Under the pieces are notes generated by a model, which ran no database searches, was not told the DNA's origin, and saw only the letters and a list, made by a program, of their open reading frames with translations. From IMG/VR virus record IMGVR_UViG_2648501150_000043, positions 1 to 20,165 of that record: DNA of 20,165 nucleotides; one strand, given 5' to 3'. Below, one piece after another: positions 2,417 to 13,876 of the stretch. How positions within the stretch are numbered: position 1 is the stretch's first letter; every line of letters begins with the position of its first letter. This DNA is from a virus. Its lineage: Duplodnaviria > Heunggongvirae > Uroviricota > Caudoviricetes. The position numbers and the translations under genes are program-made.

Positions 2417-2712
2417 TTGTCTTTCTCCTGAGACTCAGCGGCCATTTTCAGATACTGTTCAGGACAGTGCGCCATGACGCGCTGAAACAATGCCAGTGCC
2501 AGGTTGCGCTGCCCTTCGTTGAATGCAGTTAAGTGCGAATCACCAGCGAAGCATGGTGAGAACACCTTTCCCCTCTCCAGCATCGACCAGATAACGCGGC
2601 GGCCTTGCTCGCTACCCATAACGAACTTGATGTCGTCGATATCACGCTGAGCCAGAAGTTGCTGTTTGGCGTCAAGCTCTGCTTTGCGTCCTTCGTCGTC
2701 GATATCCATCAT
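2413..2712 (-). CDS. Hypothetical small acidic head-module protein (99 aa)
   Basis: ORF whose ATG overlaps the portal stop codon (ATGA coupling at 2709-2712); no recognisable family. Confidence 0.55.
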   Translation of the reverse strand: MMDIDDEGRKAELDAKQQLLAQRDIDDIKFVMGSEQGRRVIWSMLERGKVFSPCFAGDSHLTAFNEGQRNLALALFQRVMAHCPEQYLKMAAESQEKDK

Positions 2713-4379
2713 TGCTGCGGTGCTCCTGCTGCATTAGCGATAGCAGTTAATGCGCTCGGGTCGCTGGTCTGCGTTTCGCTGAGAGTCTTGGCCCCCTGCG
2801 CTGCCGCCTGACCCATAGCCATTGCCTGTGCCGCCTGAGCCTGTTTAGCTCGCTCTTCACGAATACCCTGTACCTGCTCCTGCGGAACGATGACGGTTGG
2901 CGATACGCCTGACATTTCAGAGAACGCGTCGATAGCCTGATCCACATCAAGCTTGTCGAGCGCTTCAGGTTTGAACTGCGCCAGTTGCCCGATAAATCCA
3001 ACTGTCTGCGACAGGCTGGTGAGGCCGATAGATTTCTGAGCCTGAGCCATCACAGAGATGTACTCGATACGCAGCGGCATACCCTGAAGAACGTCAGGAG
3101 GTTCTGGCAACATGTTCTTGCGGGCCATGATTGAGAACACGCGATCGATAAGCGGGTTAAGCGCTTCGTCATTCAGGCGCTCAAGCACCGGGCCAAGCAT
3201 CAGCAGTTTCTCTTCCTTCATCTCGATCACCGCTTCCACCGGCATAGATCGGGTGTTGATGTTTTGCAGCATCATGAAGAGGTCAACGAAGTAGGCGCTG
3301 TTGATGGTCTGCCTAGTGTCCTGAATGTCAGCCAGCAGGTCGGCGGTATTCGGGTTTACCAGGTATGCAGGTTTGAAACCATCCTGACCGGTCAACACGT
3401 CGAGGTACGTCACATCGCCAGGCAACAGGGAAACCCGCTGATTCTTGAGCGATGTCGGGGCAACCATCGGCGGGTTAGTGGCTTTATCGATCAACTGAGC
3501 TTTGCGCTTCTGCTCAACCTGAAGGGCTTTAACCTGACCGAGTGCCAGCATTCCAGGACAGGATGAGGCGTAAACGTCTTCGCCATTCACTTCCCAGCGC
3601 GGCGCCAGAATAGGGAATTCATCAAATCCGGATTCACGCAGCAGCTTGTCAGCGTCACCGCCAGTTTCGAAATAGACAGAGCGGTAAGGCTTGTTCTTGC
3701 TGTCCATCTTACCGCTGTCGCGGTTGACGTTAGGCGTGATGCAGTGGTTAACCTCCACCCACGTTTCATACGTGCCATTTTCCCACATGCCTTTTACGGA
3801 TGTACTGACGTTATCCAGACCGAATTCCTGCACCATCTGGCGCACGGTCATGGAGAACTGGCGAATGCAGGTGTCTACGCTACCGCGCGGACTGTTAGCC
3901 AGGTAGTAACTGCCAATAGGGAAAGGCATTGTGCGGATCACGTCCTGGTCATCTTCCAGAACAGCCATAGCGCCGGTGCCGAAAGTACCCAGACTTGCGT
4001 ACATAACAGGCAGTGACTGATACAAATTCGATTTGTTGAACACTTCGTTCATGCGGCGCTGCACGACTTCCAGCCAGATTTTCACCGGGCCATAGTCCAT
4101 CATGTCAGGGTCAGGCGTTGCCAGTTTGAACCACGGTCGTGCCGGACTGGTGATGCCTGACATCATGCCGCTGGACAGAATGCGCTGAGCCATTGAGCCA
4201 GTGGGATCAACAATCTTGGTGTTACGGCGATCATCACGGTTTACATCAGATGTCAGAAAGCGGGAGCCACGCGGATTGATGAAGTCACTCAGATCACGCC
4301 AGTGCGATTCGAACGATGTGCGCTCATTCTTCAGCTGCGCAAGTTGCTTCAGCAGGCGCTCTTTTTCGGTTTCCGCCAT
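2709..4379 (-). CDS. Portal (head-to-tail connector) protein, 556 aa
   Basis: Long ORF of typical portal size downstream of the large terminase, upstream of scaffold and capsid; GGAG-type RBS; sequence recalls podovirus-type connector proteins (recall only). Confidence 0.85.
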   Translation of the reverse strand: MAETEKERLLKQLAQLKNERTSFESHWRDLSDFINPRGSRFLTSDVNRDDRRNTKIVDPTGSMAQRILSSGMMSGITSPARPWFKLATPDPDMMDYGPVKIWLEVVQRRMNEVFNKSNLYQSLPVMYASLGTFGTGAMAVLEDDQDVIRTMPFPIGSYYLANSPRGSVDTCIRQFSMTVRQMVQEFGLDNVSTSVKGMWENGTYETWVEVNHCITPNVNRDSGKMDSKNKPYRSVYFETGGDADKLLRESGFDEFPILAPRWEVNGEDVYASSCPGMLALGQVKALQVEQKRKAQLIDKATNPPMVAPTSLKNQRVSLLPGDVTYLDVLTGQDGFKPAYLVNPNTADLLADIQDTRQTINSAYFVDLFMMLQNINTRSMPVEAVIEMKEEKLLMLGPVLERLNDEALNPLIDRVFSIMARKNMLPEPPDVLQGMPLRIEYISVMAQAQKSIGLTSLSQTVGFIGQLAQFKPEALDKLDVDQAIDAFSEMSGVSPTVIVPQEQVQGIREERAKQAQAAQAMAMGQAAAQGAKTLSETQTSDPSALTAIANAAGAPQQ

Positions 4380-4393
4380 CTCTGCCTACTCCG

Positions 4394-4600
4394 TTACTGA
4401 CCAAGCAGCGTTTTACCGCTGGTGTTTGCGGTTGAGGTGTCACCCTGAGCACCAGTCAGCAGAGTGGAACTGCGTCCTGCTGCTGCACGGCGGCGGCGTT
4501 CTTCGTCGTCACGAGAACTGACAACTGCTGCATCCTGCTCCTGTGGCGCAGCCTGTACTTCTGGCGCTGCTGGCACTGATGGCTTGCTGCCGATACACAT
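4394..4600 (-). CDS. Hypothetical small protein (68 aa), Ala/Pro/Arg-rich low complexity
   Basis: ORF ending 14 nt before portal start; GGAG 10 nt upstream of ATG; low-complexity composition makes coding status uncertain. Confidence 0.35.
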   Translation of the reverse strand: MCIGSKPSVPAAPEVQAAPQEQDAAVVSSRDDEERRRRAAAGRSSTLLTGAQGDTSTANTSGKTLLGQ

Positions 4601-4689
4601 AGCAATAGCTCCGTACGCAATTAAATTATTACCAATTTAACCACATATGATTTATTTAGCGTAGGCTATTGACACTTATAACATCAGAT

Positions 4690-4706
4690 ATTACCTTTTA
4701 GGTAAT
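4690..4706. promoter_or_regulatory. Perfect 17-bp palindrome ATTACC-TTTTA-GGTAAT (operator-like site, isolated copy upstream of portal operon)
   Basis: Exact inverted repeat read in sequence; same motif family as the sites flanking the repressor gene; TTGACA at 4670-4675 lies just upstream. Confidence 0.5.
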
Positions 4707-5308
4707 TGATGTTGATGTAACGCAGTTGATGTACGGCATATGGCACATGTGCCGCAGCGGTCCGGATGGGTTCCATTGATGCTACTTCCCCAGCCGGGTA
4801 GCCGGAATGTGCAAGCCAGTGTCAGGTAAGCACGGACAGACGATTCACCATCGTGGCGATACGGTGTGACACCTCGGAAGAGACGAGGATGCAACGATGA
4901 GAGCATTGGGGTGACCGGTTAATCCCATGACGCTAACCGATACAGGCGCAGTGCTCTCAATGTTGTGGTTAATGGCGGGGCTGACCGTCAAACGGTTGAG
5001 AAAAGATAAGCAGGCGAAACGTTCTAAGCGAGCATACGGACTGATCGAACGCGGATGGAACGGGCGGTTACGATATTGAAACACCGCGCCACTGAGCTGG
5101 AGTTCAGCACCAGCCACCACAAACGAATCACGTTAGGACCGTGGTAAACCGTAGTGCCAATGTAATTGCTGTGTGACTTTGTCGGTGCCAGATTCATCCC
5201 GAGTTGCCCCTCGCTGGTACCGACACTTTTTTTACAGCAGAACGCCATTGCGATGACGTTGCGCTGTAAACCCGTAACTGCCATGGAAGGCACCCTTACT
5301 TCCAGTTC
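4707..5308 (+). other. About 600-bp region without ORFs of 60 aa or more on the plus strand, rich in local inverted repeats; candidate long structured leader or ncRNA, ending in intrinsic terminator
   Basis: Six-frame track shows no plus-strand ORF here; the three minus-strand ORFs are in three different frames with implausible composition; region bounded by promoter-like TTGACA (4670) and a strong terminator (5309-5332). Confidence 0.25.
4927..5079 (+). CDS. Possible 50-aa small protein MTLTDTGAVLSMLWLMAGLTVKRLRKDKQAKRSKRAYGLIERGWNGRLRY (hydrophobic N-terminus, strongly basic C-terminus)
   Basis: Found by manual translation (below ORF-track size cut-off); weak RBS (GGGGTG about 13 nt upstream); speculative. 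Confidence 0.2.
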   Translation: MTLTDTGAVLSMLWLMAGLTVKRLRKDKQAKRSKRAYGLIERGWNGRLRY

Positions 5309-5332
5309 GCCCACTTCGGTGGGCATTTTTTT
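5309..5332 (+). terminator. Rho-independent terminator: GCCCAC-TTCG-GTGGGC hairpin followed by ATTTTTTT
   Basis: Perfect 6-bp GC-rich stem with 4-nt loop and 7-T run on plus strand; the reverse strand lacks a T-run, so it is unidirectional. Confidence 0.65.
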
Positions 5333-5343
5333 AAGGTGAGATT

Positions 5344-5775
5344 ATGAGCAAAGACCTGTTTGACATGAAGCGCCTTCCGGTTGACCGGGTTGCTGCGAGA
5401 GTTGTTGGTAAGGGCGTGGATTGGACACCAAACAAAGTTATCCAGACAGGAGACAGCGATCTGCCGTTGCCAGTGTTTTCTGTGTATAACATTAAAAACC
5501 CGCAACAACGGCGAGAAGTGAAAGCAATGATCGGAAGAAAGCGCGGGAGATTGACAATAATTGGCCTTGCTGTCACGCAAGGAGCAAAAAATAAAGGTGC
5601 TCGCTATGTTGCTCGTTGTGTTTGCGGGATTTATACGTATCGCCGAGCAAAAAATTTCAAGAATAATTCCGATGAGTTTGATGGCTGCGAACGATGCAGG
5701 GAGTTGCTGTTTTTGAAACGAGATGAGGTCCATCGCAGAACTGGAAAATGGGTAGAATGGAAAGATTTGATATAA
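5344..5775 (+). CDS. Hypothetical basic protein with C-terminal Cys4 zinc-ribbon (C-x-C ... C-x2-C), 143 aa
   Basis: AAGGTGAG RBS 4 nt before ATG, immediately after a terminator; own terminator downstream; opposite strand to the surrounding late operon; Cys pairs CVCG and CERC about 21 residues apart. Confidence 0.65.
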   Translation: MSKDLFDMKRLPVDRVAARVVGKGVDWTPNKVIQTGDSDLPLPVFSVYNIKNPQQRREVKAMIGRKRGRLTIIGLAVTQGAKNKGARYVARCVCGIYTYRRAKNFKNNSDEFDGCERCRELLFLKRDEVHRRTGKWVEWKDLI

Positions 5776-5778
5776 CGC

Positions 5779-5792
5779 TGTGACATGTCACA
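5779..5792. promoter_or_regulatory. 14-bp perfect palindrome TGTGACATGTCACA
   Basis: Exact palindrome 4 nt after the 143-aa gene stop; a 12-bp copy GTGACATGTCAC recurs at 8296-8307, and GGCACATGTGCC at 4742-4753 shares the ACATGT core. Confidence 0.35.
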
Positions 5793-5795
5793 TTC

Positions 5796-5821
5796 AGCCC
5801 GCCGATGCGCGGGCTTTTTTG
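5796..5821 (+). terminator. Rho-independent terminator: AGCCCGC-CGATGC-GCGGGCT hairpin followed by TTTTTT
   Basis: 7-bp GC stem plus 6-T run on plus strand only. Confidence 0.65.
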
Positions 5822-5862
5822 TATGGCATAATCACTCATTCGATTATCACAGCGAGTGGACC

Positions 5863-6144
5863 ATGAAAATTAAACAAAAAATTGTTAATACCTTTGTGAA
5901 CTCAACCCATGAGTGGAACATGGCCATGCACAATGCCATTGAAAGAAAGGTATTTGAAGGATTTGAAAGCACATTCCCTAATGGATTAAAAGACCCTGCT
6001 GAGACCGGTGAAAGAATAGAGTCAATGCGTGCATTCTATTATCAGCGCATGATGAATACCGCATCACTTTTGCTAACTGGTGCGTCACTAATCATTGCAT
6101 TAGTTGCCTTGGTTGTAGCTCTGATATCAATTCACTATGCATAG
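5863..6144 (+). CDS. Hypothetical small membrane-anchored protein (93 aa) with C-terminal transmembrane helix; the track ORF starts earlier at 5785
   Basis: Hydrophobic stretch SLLLTGASLIIALVALVVALISI at C-terminus; visibly AT-rich codon usage compared with neighbours; 3' end overlaps terL 3' end convergently by 10 bp. Confidence 0.5.
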   Translation: MKIKQKIVNTFVNSTHEWNMAMHNAIERKVFEGFESTFPNGLKDPAETGERIESMRAFYYQRMMNTASLLLTGASLIIALVALVVALISIHYA

Positions 6145-7610
6145 GGGTCGTATTCTGTCAACGCCTTGCCCTGCTGGCTTTGCTGTCCTGGTATATTCAT
6201 ACGTTTCGACACCGGGAAAGCAAACGTCAGCAGCAGCGCATCACCCTTGCCAGGAGAACGGCCTAACCGCTCTTTGATATCTTCCTTCGGCTCAATAACT
6301 ATCTTGCCGTCCACCCTGACTTTGTACTCAGCCGCCGACAGGTCGTCAGCCGTTTCCTGGTCATCCAGTGCGCCACCAATTTTCAGCCACGTTTTGCAGC
6401 TGTTGAACATCTCGCCGCGCTTGTTGAGCATCTGCGGATCGGTAGAGCCGCCGCCGAAAGGTATCAGTTGCCAGGAACGGCCCCAGCCATCACCGATTGA
6501 CTTCAGCCCGGTACCATACCCGAAGTCGATGAATACAGCGTCAGCCTGGTACTGGTCTTCAAAATCAGCGATACGCTTTGCCATAATCAGATCATCGGTT
6601 GTCTTATTGCCGGTCCATAGCACTTTGCTGTGAAGCCCCTGGCGCAGGTATATCACCGCGTCATCCACACCGGAATACGCCGGGTCAACACCGATAATCA
6701 CCGGAGCGTGCGCCACCTGCCCGGCTGTCACCACGCGCTTCATTGCGGAATCAGTCAGGCCTGTCGGGATAAACTGGAGTTCAGACGCATCAGGGAAGAT
6801 CCCGCGTACACGAACTTTCACGAAGTCGCTATCCTCGCCGTAGTCATCAACCCACTTCTGCAACTGCTGCTTGTTGGTGCCTTCCACGGTGCGGCTGTCT
6901 ATCTGCGCGCACTTCCAGCGGTGTTTGTATTTGCGGAAGCATTCACGGAAACGCCCGGTGTTACGCGTAGGGTTCCCGAACGCCACCCAGATGATTTCGG
7001 TGTCTTCGTCCGTCAGCGCACCCTCGGCAACTTCCCACACCAGATCGGCAATGTTGGACGCTTCATCGAATACAACGATGATGCGCTTGCGTTCGTTGTG
7101 CAGACCGGCGAACGCCTCGGTGTTGTGTTCAGACCATGGAATAGCATCAGCGCGCCAGCGTTTGTCGTGACCGGGATCGTTGCTGTACATCGCGGTGGCG
7201 GTGCAGGTGAACCACTCTTTCGTGATAGCCAGGTTCGACCATTTGATGATTTCAGGCCATGTTTTGGTGCGCAGCTGGTTGTCGGTGTTGGCGGTCACCA
7301 CCACCTTGCAGTCTTCACAGGTAGACATGCCCCAGTTGATGAGCATCGAGATGAACGCAGATTTACCGATACCGTGGCCGGATGCGCGGGCCAACATCAG
7401 CGGCTGGTGACGCGTTGCTGGATTCTGCAGGTGATCGCGTATCTCGCGGAATGCGTCTGCCTGCCATTTTCGCGGGCCGGTGGCATGCGCCAGTTCTGTC
7501 CCCTCTTCGCCCCACGGAAACGCATACAGCGAATAGCCCAGCGGGTCATATGTGAACGATGCAATATCCTCGACAAGCTGCTCTTCCGGCGACATGGCTG
7601 CGGCTGTCAT
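6135..7610 (-). CDS. terL: Terminase large subunit (491 aa)
   Basis: Walker-A-like GHGIGKS near N-terminus, nuclease-like acidic C-terminal half, size, ATGA overlap with upstream small terminase gene. Confidence 0.9.
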   Translation of the reverse strand: MTAAAMSPEEQLVEDIASFTYDPLGYSLYAFPWGEEGTELAHATGPRKWQADAFREIRDHLQNPATRHQPLMLARASGHGIGKSAFISMLINWGMSTCEDCKVVVTANTDNQLRTKTWPEIIKWSNLAITKEWFTCTATAMYSNDPGHDKRWRADAIPWSEHNTEAFAGLHNERKRIIVVFDEASNIADLVWEVAEGALTDEDTEIIWVAFGNPTRNTGRFRECFRKYKHRWKCAQIDSRTVEGTNKQQLQKWVDDYGEDSDFVKVRVRGIFPDASELQFIPTGLTDSAMKRVVTAGQVAHAPVIIGVDPAYSGVDDAVIYLRQGLHSKVLWTGNKTTDDLIMAKRIADFEDQYQADAVFIDFGYGTGLKSIGDGWGRSWQLIPFGGGSTDPQMLNKRGEMFNSCKTWLKIGGALDDQETADDLSAAEYKVRVDGKIVIEPKEDIKERLGRSPGKGDALLLTFAFPVSKRMNIPGQQSQQGKALTEYDPYA

Positions 7611-8272: not shown

Positions 8273-8303
8273 CTTTGCAATTTATTGTCTCTATCGTGAC
8301 ATG

Positions 8304-8642
8304 TCACACCGCTAGTTTAGTATCATGCCAGCCACGCGTCACCCAGCATGCCGAATCACCATCACACGGACACGACTCAACTGGCAGCGCATCGCCACAT
8401 TTCCCGCAACGGTTAGAGCTGATTGACTTGATGCGCCCACGAACCCGCGCATCATCCTGGCGTATAAGCAACGCGATGTACTCGTTCATGTCATACGGCG
8501 CCCGACCAGGGCGACGGGCGGCGCAGTTTCTCGCCAGCATCTCCAGTTCCTGCTCGTCTAGTTGCAATTCCAGCTTGCGGTTACCAGATTCAGCCTGGCG
8601 GGCACGCTGCGCTGCTTTGCGCTCTGCTGCGGATTTAGCCAT
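8304..8642 (-). CDS. Hypothetical protein with basic N-terminus and C-terminal Cys-rich zinc-ribbon (CGKCG ... CPCDGDSAC), about 112 aa from ATG 8642
   Basis: ORF with internal ATG at 8642 preferred over 8690; last gene before terminase; stop codon overlaps GTGACATGTCAC palindrome. Confidence 0.5.
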   Translation of the reverse strand: MAKSAAERKAAQRARQAESGNRKLELQLDEQELEMLARNCAARRPGRAPYDMNEYIALLIRQDDARVRGRIKSISSNRCGKCGDALPVESCPCDGDSACWVTRGWHDTKLAV

Positions 8643-13730: not shown

Positions 13731-13876
13731 CGGTAATTTTTTTCTCGTCATACCTATTGACACAATCACTTTTTGATCTGATTATTACCCAAAAGGTAAT
13801 ACATGAGCGCATCGCTCAGGCAGAAACCACCACTTCGTGGTTTTCCTGCATCTCCAGGTATTACCAAAATGGTAAT
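13731..13876. promoter_or_regulatory. OL-like control region: three perfect ATTACC-N5-GGTAAT sites (13731-13747, 13794-13810, 13860-13876) with a plus-strand promoter (-35 TTGACA 13767-13772, 17-bp spacer, -10 GATTAT 13790-13795) overlapping the middle site
   Basis: Exact palindromes and consensus -35 read from sequence; regular 63-66 bp centre spacing. Confidence 0.6.

Follow-up and report, generated by a model that had tools for sequence, protein, structure and literature searches.

A small Cys4 protein in the terL/portal slot of a uetakevirus belongs to a very large phage family whose core appears distantly related to the CapR zinc-finger domain

Silencing by domesticated DNA-binding domains of homing endonucleases is a recently recognised weapon in the conflicts among phages, satellites and hosts. 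PLE CapR, described in 2021, is a 15.5-kDa stand-alone protein derived from such domains; the capsid operon of ICP1 is repressed by it, and mutation of its four cysteines abolishes DNA binding (PMC8096241). CapR, DUF723 and DUF4397 are related, repeated zinc-finger DNA-binding domains of T5orf172 endonucleases (PMC10448857). The CasPR anti-CRISPRs, reported in a 2026 preprint, are monomers that bind specific sites inside cas genes and block transcription. They require the cysteines of their CapR domain and also an AP2 domain for activity, and they are encoded in acr loci and are reported as largely confined to Bacillota, where prophages carry them (bioRxiv 10.64898/2026.02.23.707548).

The window analysed here is a whole stretch of 20,165 nt (IMG/VR record IMGVR_UViG_2648501150_000043) from an enterobacterial epsilon15/phiV10-like (Uetakevirus) phage. 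Its + strand carries, at 5344-5775, a coding sequence with an ATG start and a TAA stop (5773-5775) for a protein of 143 amino acids and 16.5 kDa. As an earlier note on this DNA had described, the protein is basic (pI 10.1; 31 Lys and Arg versus 16 Asp and Glu) and contains two cysteine pairs, CVCG at residues 92/94 and CERC at 115/118. Twenty residues separate the pairs, giving the pattern C-x-C-x20-C-x2-C, and there is a single histidine. When the sequence was compared with those of 10 homologues, substitutions fell mostly on the third codon position (e.g. 10/1/39 and 20/10/59 for the three positions). The ORF is a real gene and, judging from these codons, is under strong purifying selection.

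The same note regarded the protein as an orphan without a clear match, a description that no longer holds. The HMM of PHROG 18493 matches it from end to end (E = 1.1e-61), with residues 2-142 covering positions 1-135 of the 136 in the profile, and this family comprises thousands of clusters: a profile search retrieved 9,401 protein clusters at 50% identity, 2,092 of them at E ≤ 1e-10. A profile scan of genome contigs with alignment A1 gave 14 loci. All of the 125 sampled homologues match phrog_18493 end to end. Outside the uetakeviruses, homologues lie in Proteobacteria, with a few in MAGs of Acidobacteriota and Verrucomicrobiota; the well-studied strain EPEC E2348/69 also carries a homologue (WP_000031196.1), in a region 88% identical in DNA. 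No papers were found in a literature search by accession and PHROG id, and Pfam, NCBIfam and PADLOC scans of the 143-aa protein matched nothing. The family phrog_18493 is a very large, uncharacterised phage family without a Pfam, NCBIfam or PDB representative. Homologues in Rhizobium phages are named 'HNH endonuclease protein', and the HNH motif is absent there too.

Conservation in the family is concentrated at the cysteines. C92, C94, C115 and C118, together with R100, are invariant across the 125 homologues, whose identities range from 28 to 91%, so the zinc-ribbon proposal of the earlier note agrees with the conservation of its cysteines. The codons of the first pair (C92-V-C94) lie at 5617-5625 (+) and are followed by G95, which is invariant or nearly so; those of the second pair (C115-E-R-C118) lie at 5686-5697 (+). 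R91 and D113, the latter just ahead of the second pair, are near-invariant. Basicity is also a family trait, with a pI above 9 in 99% of the 125 members and a median of 9.7.

Three parts can be distinguished in the protein. The N-terminal ~50 residues (5344-5493, +) carry the motif P12..R15.A17A18.V20...G24 ... P41.P43, whose columns are near invariant in alignments A1 and A3. Residues ~52-120 (5497-5703, +) form a module that resembles the CapR zinc finger, as delimited by the mapping of array repeats, by hhalign and by the phrog_374 matches discussed below. The C-terminal part (5689-5772, +) is a basic helix with near-invariant columns (L121, K125, E128, R131 R132. G134 K135). Both terminal parts are found in the small-protein family only. 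This full architecture of 125-150 amino acids is kept in more than 100 of the best 150 cluster representatives, which are mutually less than 50% identical, and across several phyla.

The central module is shared with larger proteins. In tandem-array proteins, which contain 2-11 copies of it, the repeat unit maps to family profile positions ~52-118, and the N-terminal ~50 residues of the small proteins are missing from the internal repeats. Some of the arrays are fused to HTH_3 (P0027) or HNH (P0061) domains, and P0050 shows a weak DUF2726 match. The arrangement is like that of the tandem CapR/DUF723/DUF4397 arrays of T5orf172 and HNH homing endonucleases, where residues ~52-118 correspond to one repeat unit; unlike in those arrays, the module stands here in a single copy and without a nuclease domain. 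Moreover, 118 of the 125 family members match positions 187-242 (non-catalytic) of the 617 positions of phrog_374, annotated as 'HNH endonuclease', and the 143-aa protein matches that profile only there. A Pfam search of the protein for HNH (PF01844), GIY-YIG and T5orf172 gave no match at E ≤ 10.

Profile comparison points from this module towards CapR. In hhalign, family alignment A3 aligned with a set of 22 modules of the type DLTGQRFGRLTVI..WxCxCDCG..SCGC (alignment A6) at a probability of 98.9% (E = 3.3e-17; 59 columns; query residues 57-120), with C115 opposite the second cysteine of 'SCGC' and D113 opposite the first. The CapR homology domain, PF21817, in turn matches five of these 22 FGRLTVI..WxCxCDCG..SCGC modules at E ≤ 0.01, the best with 24.9 bits. 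P0188, P0199 and P0256 score 24.9-31.7 bits, and these three and the best of the modules reach the PF21817 gathering score of 24.2 bits. As a positive control, ICP1 gp53, a published homing endonuclease with CapR domains, was matched with 71.7 bits (5.6e-20) in three copies. Since the 143-aa protein itself gave no match to PF21817, DUF723 or DUF4397 in the Pfam scan even at E ≤ 10, its link to CapR is transitive, through the intermediate module family. The N-terminus of ICP1 gp53, used as a single sequence, did not align significantly with A3 or A6 (probability below 1%). The cysteine patterns also differ, being CxC-x20-CxxC in the 143-aa protein versus CxxC-x24-26-CxC in CapR (PMC8096241) and CxCxC-x18-CxC in modules of the CasPR type. 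Regarding these data, the four-cysteine core would be distantly related, at the level of profile homology, to CapR, the zinc finger with which phage homing endonucleases bind DNA.

The AlphaFold model of the protein (pLDDT 87.5) consists of the N-terminal region, one module and the C-terminal helix, and the N-terminal ~50 residues reach 82-91 with a deep alignment. The modelled module (~52-120) contains a helix, a three-stranded sheet, a CxCG knuckle and a CxxC motif that starts a helix. C92 and C94 lie in a β-hairpin turn, at the end of strand 87-92 and leading into strand 97-101, and C115 and C118 lie at the N-terminus of helix 116-133, which is followed by a further helix (139-142). In the model, the cysteine arrangement is treble-clef-like, in line with what the earlier note had suspected. 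The matches of a Foldseek search against BFVD were weak and are a lead only; some were phage proteins without characterisation, others bore the names AP2, HNH or homing endonuclease.

The zinc finger of I-TevI provides a further comparison; it acts mainly as a spacer or distance determinant. Its motif logic, CxCG ... CxxCR, is like that of the 143-aa protein, and hhalign against PDB 1I3J lines the motifs up as expected. However, that match is not significant (probability 0.6%) and the spacing between the pairs is 20 residues here versus 10 in I-TevI, so the likeness is an analogy only. In the literature, the I-TevI finger has been called a degenerate treble clef, and CapR has been compared to it.

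The 143-aa protein is thus like PLE CapR in being small (16.5 vs 15.5 kDa), stand-alone, nuclease-free and encoded on a mobile element, and in containing a Cys4 module of a type with which phage homing endonucleases otherwise bind DNA. It differs in lacking a direct PF21817 match, in its CxC...CxxC rather than CxxC...CxC order, in the extra conserved N-terminal ~50 residues and C-terminal helix, and in coming from an enterobacterial temperate phage. Like the CasPRs, it is phage-encoded and nuclease-free, and its family aligns with the module type of those proteins (WxCxCDCG...SCGC) in the comparison given above; CasPR also offers a model for its effect, monomeric site-specific binding that blocks RNA polymerase. 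Unlike the CasPRs, it has no AP2 domain (no Pfam match), its second knuckle is D-x-C-x2-C instead of C-x-C, and its gene lies in the terL/portal slot of an enterobacterial uetakevirus and not in a Bacillota acr locus.

With a CapR-like core, the protein is most likely a silencer of a gene, acting at a specific DNA site, and not an enzyme that cuts DNA. As a catalytic domain is missing, the most likely effect of binding is repression of transcription, as in PLE CapR and the CasPRs. We give about an even chance to the reading that the gene product is a nuclease-free, single-module, CapR-like zinc-finger DNA-binding protein, domesticated from homing endonucleases, that works as a repressor or a roadblock. 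In this mechanism, C92/C94 and C115/C118 would hold one Zn2+ in a treble-clef-like knuckle, which would rigidify the small three-stranded sheet. R91 and R100, the basic C-terminal helix (RRTGK) and the sheet would form a very basic surface for the binding of a specific DNA site, the protein probably being a monomer, and once bound it would repress either by promoter occlusion or as a roadblock inside a gene. The target could belong to the host, as a defence gene or some other gene, to a competing phage or satellite, or to the phage itself. Of the three roles first suggested (a regulator of late genes, an anti-defence factor or a nucleic-acid-binding defence factor), the affinity to CapR makes a transcriptional silencer, possibly with an anti-defence function, the best one. 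The more general idea of a small basic Cys4 protein that is probably a DNA-binding regulator is supported, with zinc binding being a prediction.

The terminal parts of the protein leave room for another explanation, since the conserved N-terminal 50 residues and C-terminal helix have no counterparts in characterised CapR proteins and could make protein rather than DNA contacts. The zinc module would then be a scaffold, and the N-terminal segment and C-terminal helix would bind and inhibit a host protein, for example one that acts in defence, RNA polymerase or a nuclease, as in a conventional anti-defence or host-takeover factor. This would fit with the family-specific, highly conserved nature of both parts, which CapR and CasPR lack, and with the position of homologues in other phages, which sit in early or accessory parts of the genome, with small genes without assigned function around them, near methyltransferases or upstream of Q-like and NusG-like genes. 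Nevertheless, we consider it unlikely: strong basicity runs through the whole family, whereas acidity is frequent in inhibitors that are proteins or DNA mimics, the core module is common to arrays linked to nucleases or HTH domains whose evident job is DNA recognition, and PADLOC found no match.

Among the neighbours at more than 60 loci, only typical early or 'nin-region' genes were seen (DUF1376-like, NinG-like, Q-like, NusG-like and RusA-like, assigned by reading the sequences after a crude ORF caller), and no conserved partner gene was found with that caller. The 93-aa membrane ORF downstream (5863-6144) was discarded as a toxin-antitoxin or other partner, as only three of 15 related loci have it. 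The 'ORF4 anti-repressor' of ZX5 (PMC9782041) was also considered as a counterpart, but its product is of the Bro-N type and the two genes are not the same.

As the earlier note had indicated, the gene is antisense to the late operon. It lies on the + strand between terL (6135-7610) and the portal gene (2709-4379), the neighbouring packaging and head genes, including gp3 (4394-4600), being on the - strand. In epsilon15 the same slot is occupied by an unrelated phrog_322 gene, and many uetakeviruses do not have the gene. By comparison of these sequences, the gene is an exchangeable accessory cassette of the terL/portal slot.

Such a slot would also suit a selfish element, and a homing endonuclease could have inserted between terL and portal, the gene being its DNA-binding half in decay, with no function for the phage. 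The module does derive from homing-endonuclease architectures, the cassette is exchangeable and patchily distributed, with other cargo in epsilon15, the terL beside the gene is much longer in some relatives, and nuclease genes are established markers of exchange boundaries (PMC10448857). This origin without function is, nonetheless, improbable when set against the strong purifying selection on the gene, the end-to-end match of every sampled member to a single PHROG and the retention across several phyla of a full architecture with parts that endonucleases lack; furthermore, PLE CapR shows that a stand-alone domain of this kind can be functional.

A tRNA-Arg(UCU) gene or tRNA remnants occur upstream of the gene in the uetakevirus slot, and about a quarter of the other loci have tRNA genes at a distance of no more than 1-3 kb. 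Together with the best PDB sequence match of the first profile, which was the ribosomal protein bL31 (E = 0.022, with the CxCG...CxxC motifs aligned), they could suggest an RNA- or ribosome-directed protein, either a zinc ribbon like that of L31 or a factor that acts on the tRNA or transcript next to it. We regard this as very improbable. Relatedness to bL31 was rejected because the weak PDB sequence matches fade with a deeper profile, and a functional tie to tRNA genes was not supported beyond the common position at module junctions.

A perfect palindrome, TGTGACATGTCACA (core GTGACATGTCAC), lies at 5779-5792, 3 nt after the stop codon, in the conserved stretch that flanks the cassette slot on its right. 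The earlier note had named it as a DNA target to test. The 10 bp of its core, GTGAC-NN-GTCAC, do not change among 13 loci, one of which is epsilon15 with its unrelated cargo, and only the two central bases vary, in two loci. Because it is invariant in epsilon15, whose slot gene is unrelated, the palindrome is a feature of the phage backbone that is not tied to the 143-aa gene. A second exact copy is found at 8296-8307, and a copy stands upstream of terS in every uetakevirus locus; most of these loci have two copies, and the other 83 loci fetched, most of them with homologues in other kinds of phage, have none. Hence, GTGACATGTCAC was rejected as the operator of the 143-aa protein. The gene directly upstream of terS is of phrog_536, annotated as 'transcriptional regulator'.

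The palindrome also bears on the likeness to Ogr/Delta that had been proposed. The cysteine spacing of Ogr/Delta is C-x2-C-x22-C-x4-C. Like these activators of P2 and P4, the 143-aa protein is small, basic, phage-encoded and Cys4, and a late-gene activator of this type acting on the adjacent palindrome would be in keeping with the position of the gene among late genes. This explanation is hardly credible, given that the Pfam search, which included Ogr_Delta, gave no match at E ≤ 10, that the cysteines are spaced differently, that the palindrome behaves as backbone and that the phrog_536 regulator already stands at terS. In addition, the gene is not universal in the phage genus; as many uetakeviruses lack it, its product cannot be an essential late activator.

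Concerning the expression of the gene, the earlier note described an RBS of its own, intrinsic terminators on both sides and, from these, an independent expression. The RBS is present (AAGGTGA, 5333-5339, +, 4 nt ahead of the ATG) and is identical in 15 uetakevirus loci, including epsilon15 with its other gene. The terminators, found by a terminator scan, are also there as + strand hairpins with T-runs. The upstream one (5305-5332; GCCCAC-UUCG-GUGGGC followed by U7) ends 1 nt before the RBS, and five of 11 sequences show compensatory double changes at two stem positions; the downstream one (5796-5821) is conserved in 12 of 13 aligned loci. A larger + strand hairpin can be read from the sequence further upstream (5181-5233), with an 11-bp stem that includes one G.U pair and a T-run after it. 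Related loci form the same hairpin from different sequence, and it is in the + strand RNA alone that the G.U pair can form.

The promoter scan found no sigma-70-like + strand promoter within 4300-6400. Since there is no space for a promoter between the hairpin at 5305-5332 and the RBS, the supposed independent expression is probably read-through from further upstream. As for the moron definition (own promoter and terminator), the downstream terminator is present, whereas on the upstream side a strong terminator ends just before the RBS. A candidate + strand promoter under the threshold of the scan lies ~650 nt upstream of the gene (TTGACA at 4669-4674, a 17-nt spacer and TACCTT, to 4697), and a putative operator, ATTACCTTTTAGGTAAT (4690-4706), overlaps it. 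The layout from TTGAC to operator is kept in locus L015 although the spacer has diverged, the 10-mer CTATTGACAC is common to this site and to an operator-associated site near 13784, and the site equivalent to ATTACCTTTTAGGTAAT is annotated as repressor-binding in the epsilon15 record. The gene is probably transcribed from this candidate repressor-controlled promoter, with reading through two + strand terminators.

On a wider scale, PHROG 18493 could be the Proteobacterial counterpart of CapR and the CasPRs, a very abundant and so far undescribed class (more than 2,000 clusters at 50% identity, E ≤ 1e-10) of nuclease-free, single-module zinc-finger proteins. With them, temperate phages would have programmable, sequence-specific means to shut off transcription of defence genes in the host, or of rivals among phages and satellites, and the N-terminal 50 residues and the basic C-terminal helix would replace AP2 as the second DNA contact. 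We consider this idea doubtful.

What is new here is the tie to the CapR domain class of a large family of small proteins that phages and prophages of Proteobacteria encode and that has so far had no annotation, some of its members being mislabelled as 'HNH endonuclease'. If its members do not bind specific host or phage sites, the result would still be a useful correction of annotation and a candidate for a new Pfam family. If they do, the range of DNA-binding proteins directed against defences and competitors would be wider, and the family would provide compact monomeric DNA-recognition modules.

The DNA of the window is that of a temperate podovirus resembling epsilon15 and phiV10 (genus Uetakevirus), or of such a prophage. 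With 4300-6300 as query, megablast matched the Salmonella phages PAT1, SPN1S and epsilon15 as well as E. coli phages, and an IMG/VR prophage contig is identical to it across 4300-6400. The gene encoding the 143-aa Cys4 protein (5344-5775, + strand) sits in the 1.5-kb gap between terL (6135-7610, - strand) and a gp3-like gene (4394-4600, - strand), on the strand opposite to both; terS and the portal gene (2709-4379) are also on the - strand. A homologue is found at the equivalent prophage position in EPEC E2348/69.

The earlier note described this gene accurately. The ORF with its ATG start, the RBS AAGGTGA (5333-5339, ending 4 nt 5' of the ATG), the cysteine pairs (C92 and C94 in CVCG, C115 and C118 in CERC), the basicity (pI 10.1; 31 K+R versus 16 D+E), the strand and the flanking hairpin/T-run terminators (5305-5332 and 5796-5821, both +) were all found again, together with an additional large hairpin with a T-run (5181-5233, +). 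Compensatory changes in the 5305-5332 stem in 5 of 11 related sequences indicate a selected RNA structure. Compared with ten homologues, substitutions fall overwhelmingly at third codon positions (e.g. 10/1/39 and 20/10/59 by codon position); the ORF is under purifying selection in its own frame, and this bias makes the antisense 145-aa ORF (5296-5733) spurious. Inside the gene, at codons ~50-57 (NPQQRREV), there is a terminator-like hairpin with a T-run on the - strand (5499-5515), which homologues retain with 8-9 bp via G.U pairs and compensatory changes valid solely in the - strand RNA; convergent terL transcripts may be halted by this hairpin.

Concerning expression, the bracketing terminators stand. 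The independent regulation deduced from them probably amounts to read-through from further upstream, since the upstream terminator abuts the RBS and the interval between them is too short for a promoter. No sigma-70-like + strand site was found by a promoter scan of 4300-6400. The best candidate, below the scan threshold, pairs TTGACA (4669-4674, +) with TACCTT across 17 nt and overlaps the 17-bp operator ATTACCTTTTAGGTAAT, annotated as a repressor site in the epsilon15 record, and the same geometry is present in the related locus L015 though the spacer has diverged; the 10-mer CTATTGACAC was found again at another operator-associated site. Expression would thus need derepression plus read-through of two terminators. 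The operator-like inverted repeat ATTACC-N5-GGTAAT occurs nine times in the window (4690, 8220, 10646, 10708, 12608, 12997, 13721, 13784 and 13860) versus 0 expected in shuffles, with copies upstream of gp3/portal and of terS and three clustered at 13.7-13.9 kb. The repressor site annotated in epsilon15 is the equivalent of the 4690 copy. This suggests that the repressor also touches promoters within the late region.

The upstream region (4731-5230, +) is mosaic. In relatives, this strand bears a tRNA-Arg(UCU) (L015 5718-5794), tRNA 3' fragments of the form GGTTCGAATCC...ACCA or, in E2348/69, a 'pseudogenic tRNA-Gly' (another corresponding segment is L088 2296-2408), which argues that the + strand is genuinely transcribed as a unit; the window lacks any tRNA. 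This region also contains a perfect palindrome, GGCACATGTGCC (about 4741-4752), and a 50-aa ORF (4927-5079, +) with a hydrophobic N-terminus, a basic C-terminus and no PHROG match.

The slot that the gene fills takes exchangeable cassettes. Both of its flanks are conserved, with hairpins, a terminator and the RBS on the left (5229-5343) and the palindrome and a terminator on the right (5776-5820), and in epsilon15 they enclose an unrelated phrog_322 protein of 121 aa. Further cargo is an ORF for 93 aa (5863-6144, +), with a C-terminal transmembrane segment, a weak Hol_Tox match (E 0.004) and an extended -10-like TGGCATAAT directly after the terminator. Only 3 of 15 related loci have it, and it is hence regarded as an independent insertion.

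The 12-bp palindrome of the right flank, GTGACATGTCAC, had been tied to the 143-aa gene as a possible binding site. It has two exact copies in the window (5780-5791 and 8296-8307; about 0.002 matches expected by chance in 20 kb), each at or just past a stop codon, with an intrinsic terminator a few nt further on. For the second copy, this stop codon belongs to a phrog_536 'transcriptional regulator' gene (8304-8642, -) and overlaps the palindrome, which is followed by the terminator just upstream of terS. The pair brackets terS-terL in most uetakevirus loci, none of 83 other loci has a copy, and the 10-bp core is invariant in epsilon15 despite the unrelated cargo. Because of this distribution and invariance, the palindrome is a backbone element of the genus and was rejected as the operator of the 143-aa protein, a role also disfavoured because characterised CapR-type proteins bind asymmetric sites as monomers. 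The pair might serve as a regulator or processing site, or mark a recombination boundary. The 112-aa phrog_536 protein, whose gene lies directly 5' of terS, has many cysteines at its C-terminus (CGKCGD..CPCDGDSAC); it is a candidate regulator of late genes and might bind the palindrome. The distance between copies is ~4.5 kb in L012 versus ~2.2-2.9 kb in other loci, and the PAT1 TerL (L002 2976-5426) is annotated with 816 aa versus 491 aa in the window, which suggests that the terL of some relatives contains an intein or an inserted homing endonuclease.

The protein had been considered an orphan, yet it is a member of the already catalogued, uncharacterised PHROG 18493, which it matches end to end (E 1e-61). 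It has 23 word-indexed homologues (lowest identity 29%). Homologues occur in the Salmonella phages PAT1, 65FD and 66FD (82%), the Klebsiella phage SopranoGao (55%), a Proteus phage, and Vibrio and Rhizobium phages. A 20-sequence profile searched against 1.8 billion cluster representatives retrieved 9,401 proteins at E<=1e-3, of which 2,092 reach E<=1e-10; hosts are chiefly Gamma- and Alphaproteobacteria, and a few members come from MAGs of Acidobacteriota and Verrucomicrobiota. In a 125-member alignment (28-91% identity), all four cysteines and R100 are invariant, P12, A17, V20, G24, P41, G64, G68, G74, R91, G95, D113 and G134 are near-invariant, and 99% of members have a pI above 9. None of the source names is informative. 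Two Rhizobium phage entries (RHph_N28_2, QIG70463.1, L005 3956-4417; RHph_TM3_3_3) are named 'HNH endonuclease protein' with no HNH motif in the translated sequence, a label probably derived from likeness to the DNA-binding module of genuine HNH endonucleases.

In other phage types, the homologues belong to early or accessory regions. They precede the integrase in SopranoGao, adjoin a methyltransferase in a Proteus phage, follow DnaA-like and DUF1376 genes in Rhizobium phages and, in one lambdoid group, lie between NinG-like and Q-like genes (identified by eye). No conserved partner gene appeared among the neighbourhoods examined. In many Rhizobium-type loci (L059, L062, L067, L069, L070, L072, L073, L081, L087, L095 and others) a tRNA-Met(CAT) follows 1-2.5 kb downstream on the same strand, probably reflecting a common position at the early/late module junction and not a functional link.

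The AlphaFold model built from the deep alignment is confident (mean pLDDT 87.5). It predicts an N-terminal segment with a short helix (residues 15-21), a helix (53-62), a three-stranded sheet (70-76, 87-92, 97-101) and then three more helices, one short, one long (116-133) and a final one (139-142).

In many profile hits, profile positions ~52-118, and only these, are matched 2-11 times in tandem. Such arrays are joined to an HTH_3 domain in P0027 and to an HNH nuclease in P0061, one has a weak DUF2726 match (P0050), and 118 of the 125 family members match the non-catalytic segment 187-242 of the phrog_374 'HNH endonuclease'. With such relatives, the gene could be the remnant of a selfish endonuclease, although this is improbable. 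A search with the array-module profile gave 3,740 proteins, mostly of ~115 aa with two modules of the form 'DLTGQRFGRLTVI..WxCxCDCG..SCGC', some annotated with PF21817, the CapR homology domain. When the family alignment was compared by hhalign with 22 such modules, the window sequence being left out, the probability was 98.9% (E 3.3e-17) over residues 57-120. Of these modules, five match PF21817 at E<=0.01; its gathering score is reached by the best of the five and by the proteins P0188, P0199 and P0256. As a control, ICP1 gp53, a published CapR-domain homing endonuclease, matches PF21817 in three copies (5.6e-20), plus T5orf172.

By this profile-profile comparison, PHROG 18493 is linked to CapR-class zinc-finger DNA-binding domains, which derive from homing endonucleases. 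The likeness to the Ogr/Delta class noted earlier was not accurate, and an Ogr/Delta-type late activator is the least probable reading of all. The protein itself gives no match to PF21817, DUF723 or DUF4397 at thresholds up to E<=10. The N-terminus of gp53, taken singly, does not align significantly with the family or the 22 modules, and the cysteine pattern of the 143-aa protein, CxC-x20-CxxC with D113 replacing one Cys of 'SCGC', differs from published patterns. For these reasons it is a distant and distinct branch of the CapR-like zinc-finger superfamily, outside the Pfam family as now defined. PMC10448857 describes CapR, DUF723 and DUF4397 as zinc-finger DNA-binding domains of homing endonucleases that are related to each other, often occur as repeats and tend to be shuffled and co-opted. 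The CapR of PLE binds the promoter region of the ICP1 capsid operon and represses it, mutation of its four conserved cysteines abolishes DNA binding, and its motif was likened by the authors to the degenerate treble-clef finger of I-TevI (PMC8096241). The motifs of I-TevI and of the 143-aa protein align (FCKCG/RCVCG; CSKCR/CERCR) in a comparison that is not significant. CasPRs, which combine CapR with AP2, are anti-CRISPRs that bind as monomers to specific sites within cas8b or cas9 and block transcription. They depend on the cysteines of CapR, and their binding to heparin is better with zinc (bioRxiv 10.64898/2026.02.23.707548).

Regarding these data, the 143-aa protein is most likely a zinc-stabilised DNA-binding repressor or roadblock. 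It would be a domesticated homing-endonuclease recognition module, acting as a sequence-specific monomer with no catalytic activity. The first 50 residues and the basic helix at the C-terminus (RRTGK), which are specific to the family, may give a second DNA contact, as AP2 does in CasPRs, or may contact a protein; that the whole protein is a protein-binding inhibitor is unlikely, though the least so among the alternatives. An RNA- or ribosome-directed, L31-like function is very unlikely, as the L31 match weakens with a deeper profile (from E 0.022 to E 0.59). All four alternatives have less support than a CapR-like DNA-binding protein. The family's homology, conservation, basicity and fusion partners were shown by the analysis; zinc binding, DNA binding and repression are inferred. 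While the function of the 143-aa protein itself is predicted, the link to CapR would provide a testable function for hundreds to thousands of 'hypothetical proteins' and would extend a newly recognised silencing strategy to Proteobacterial phages.
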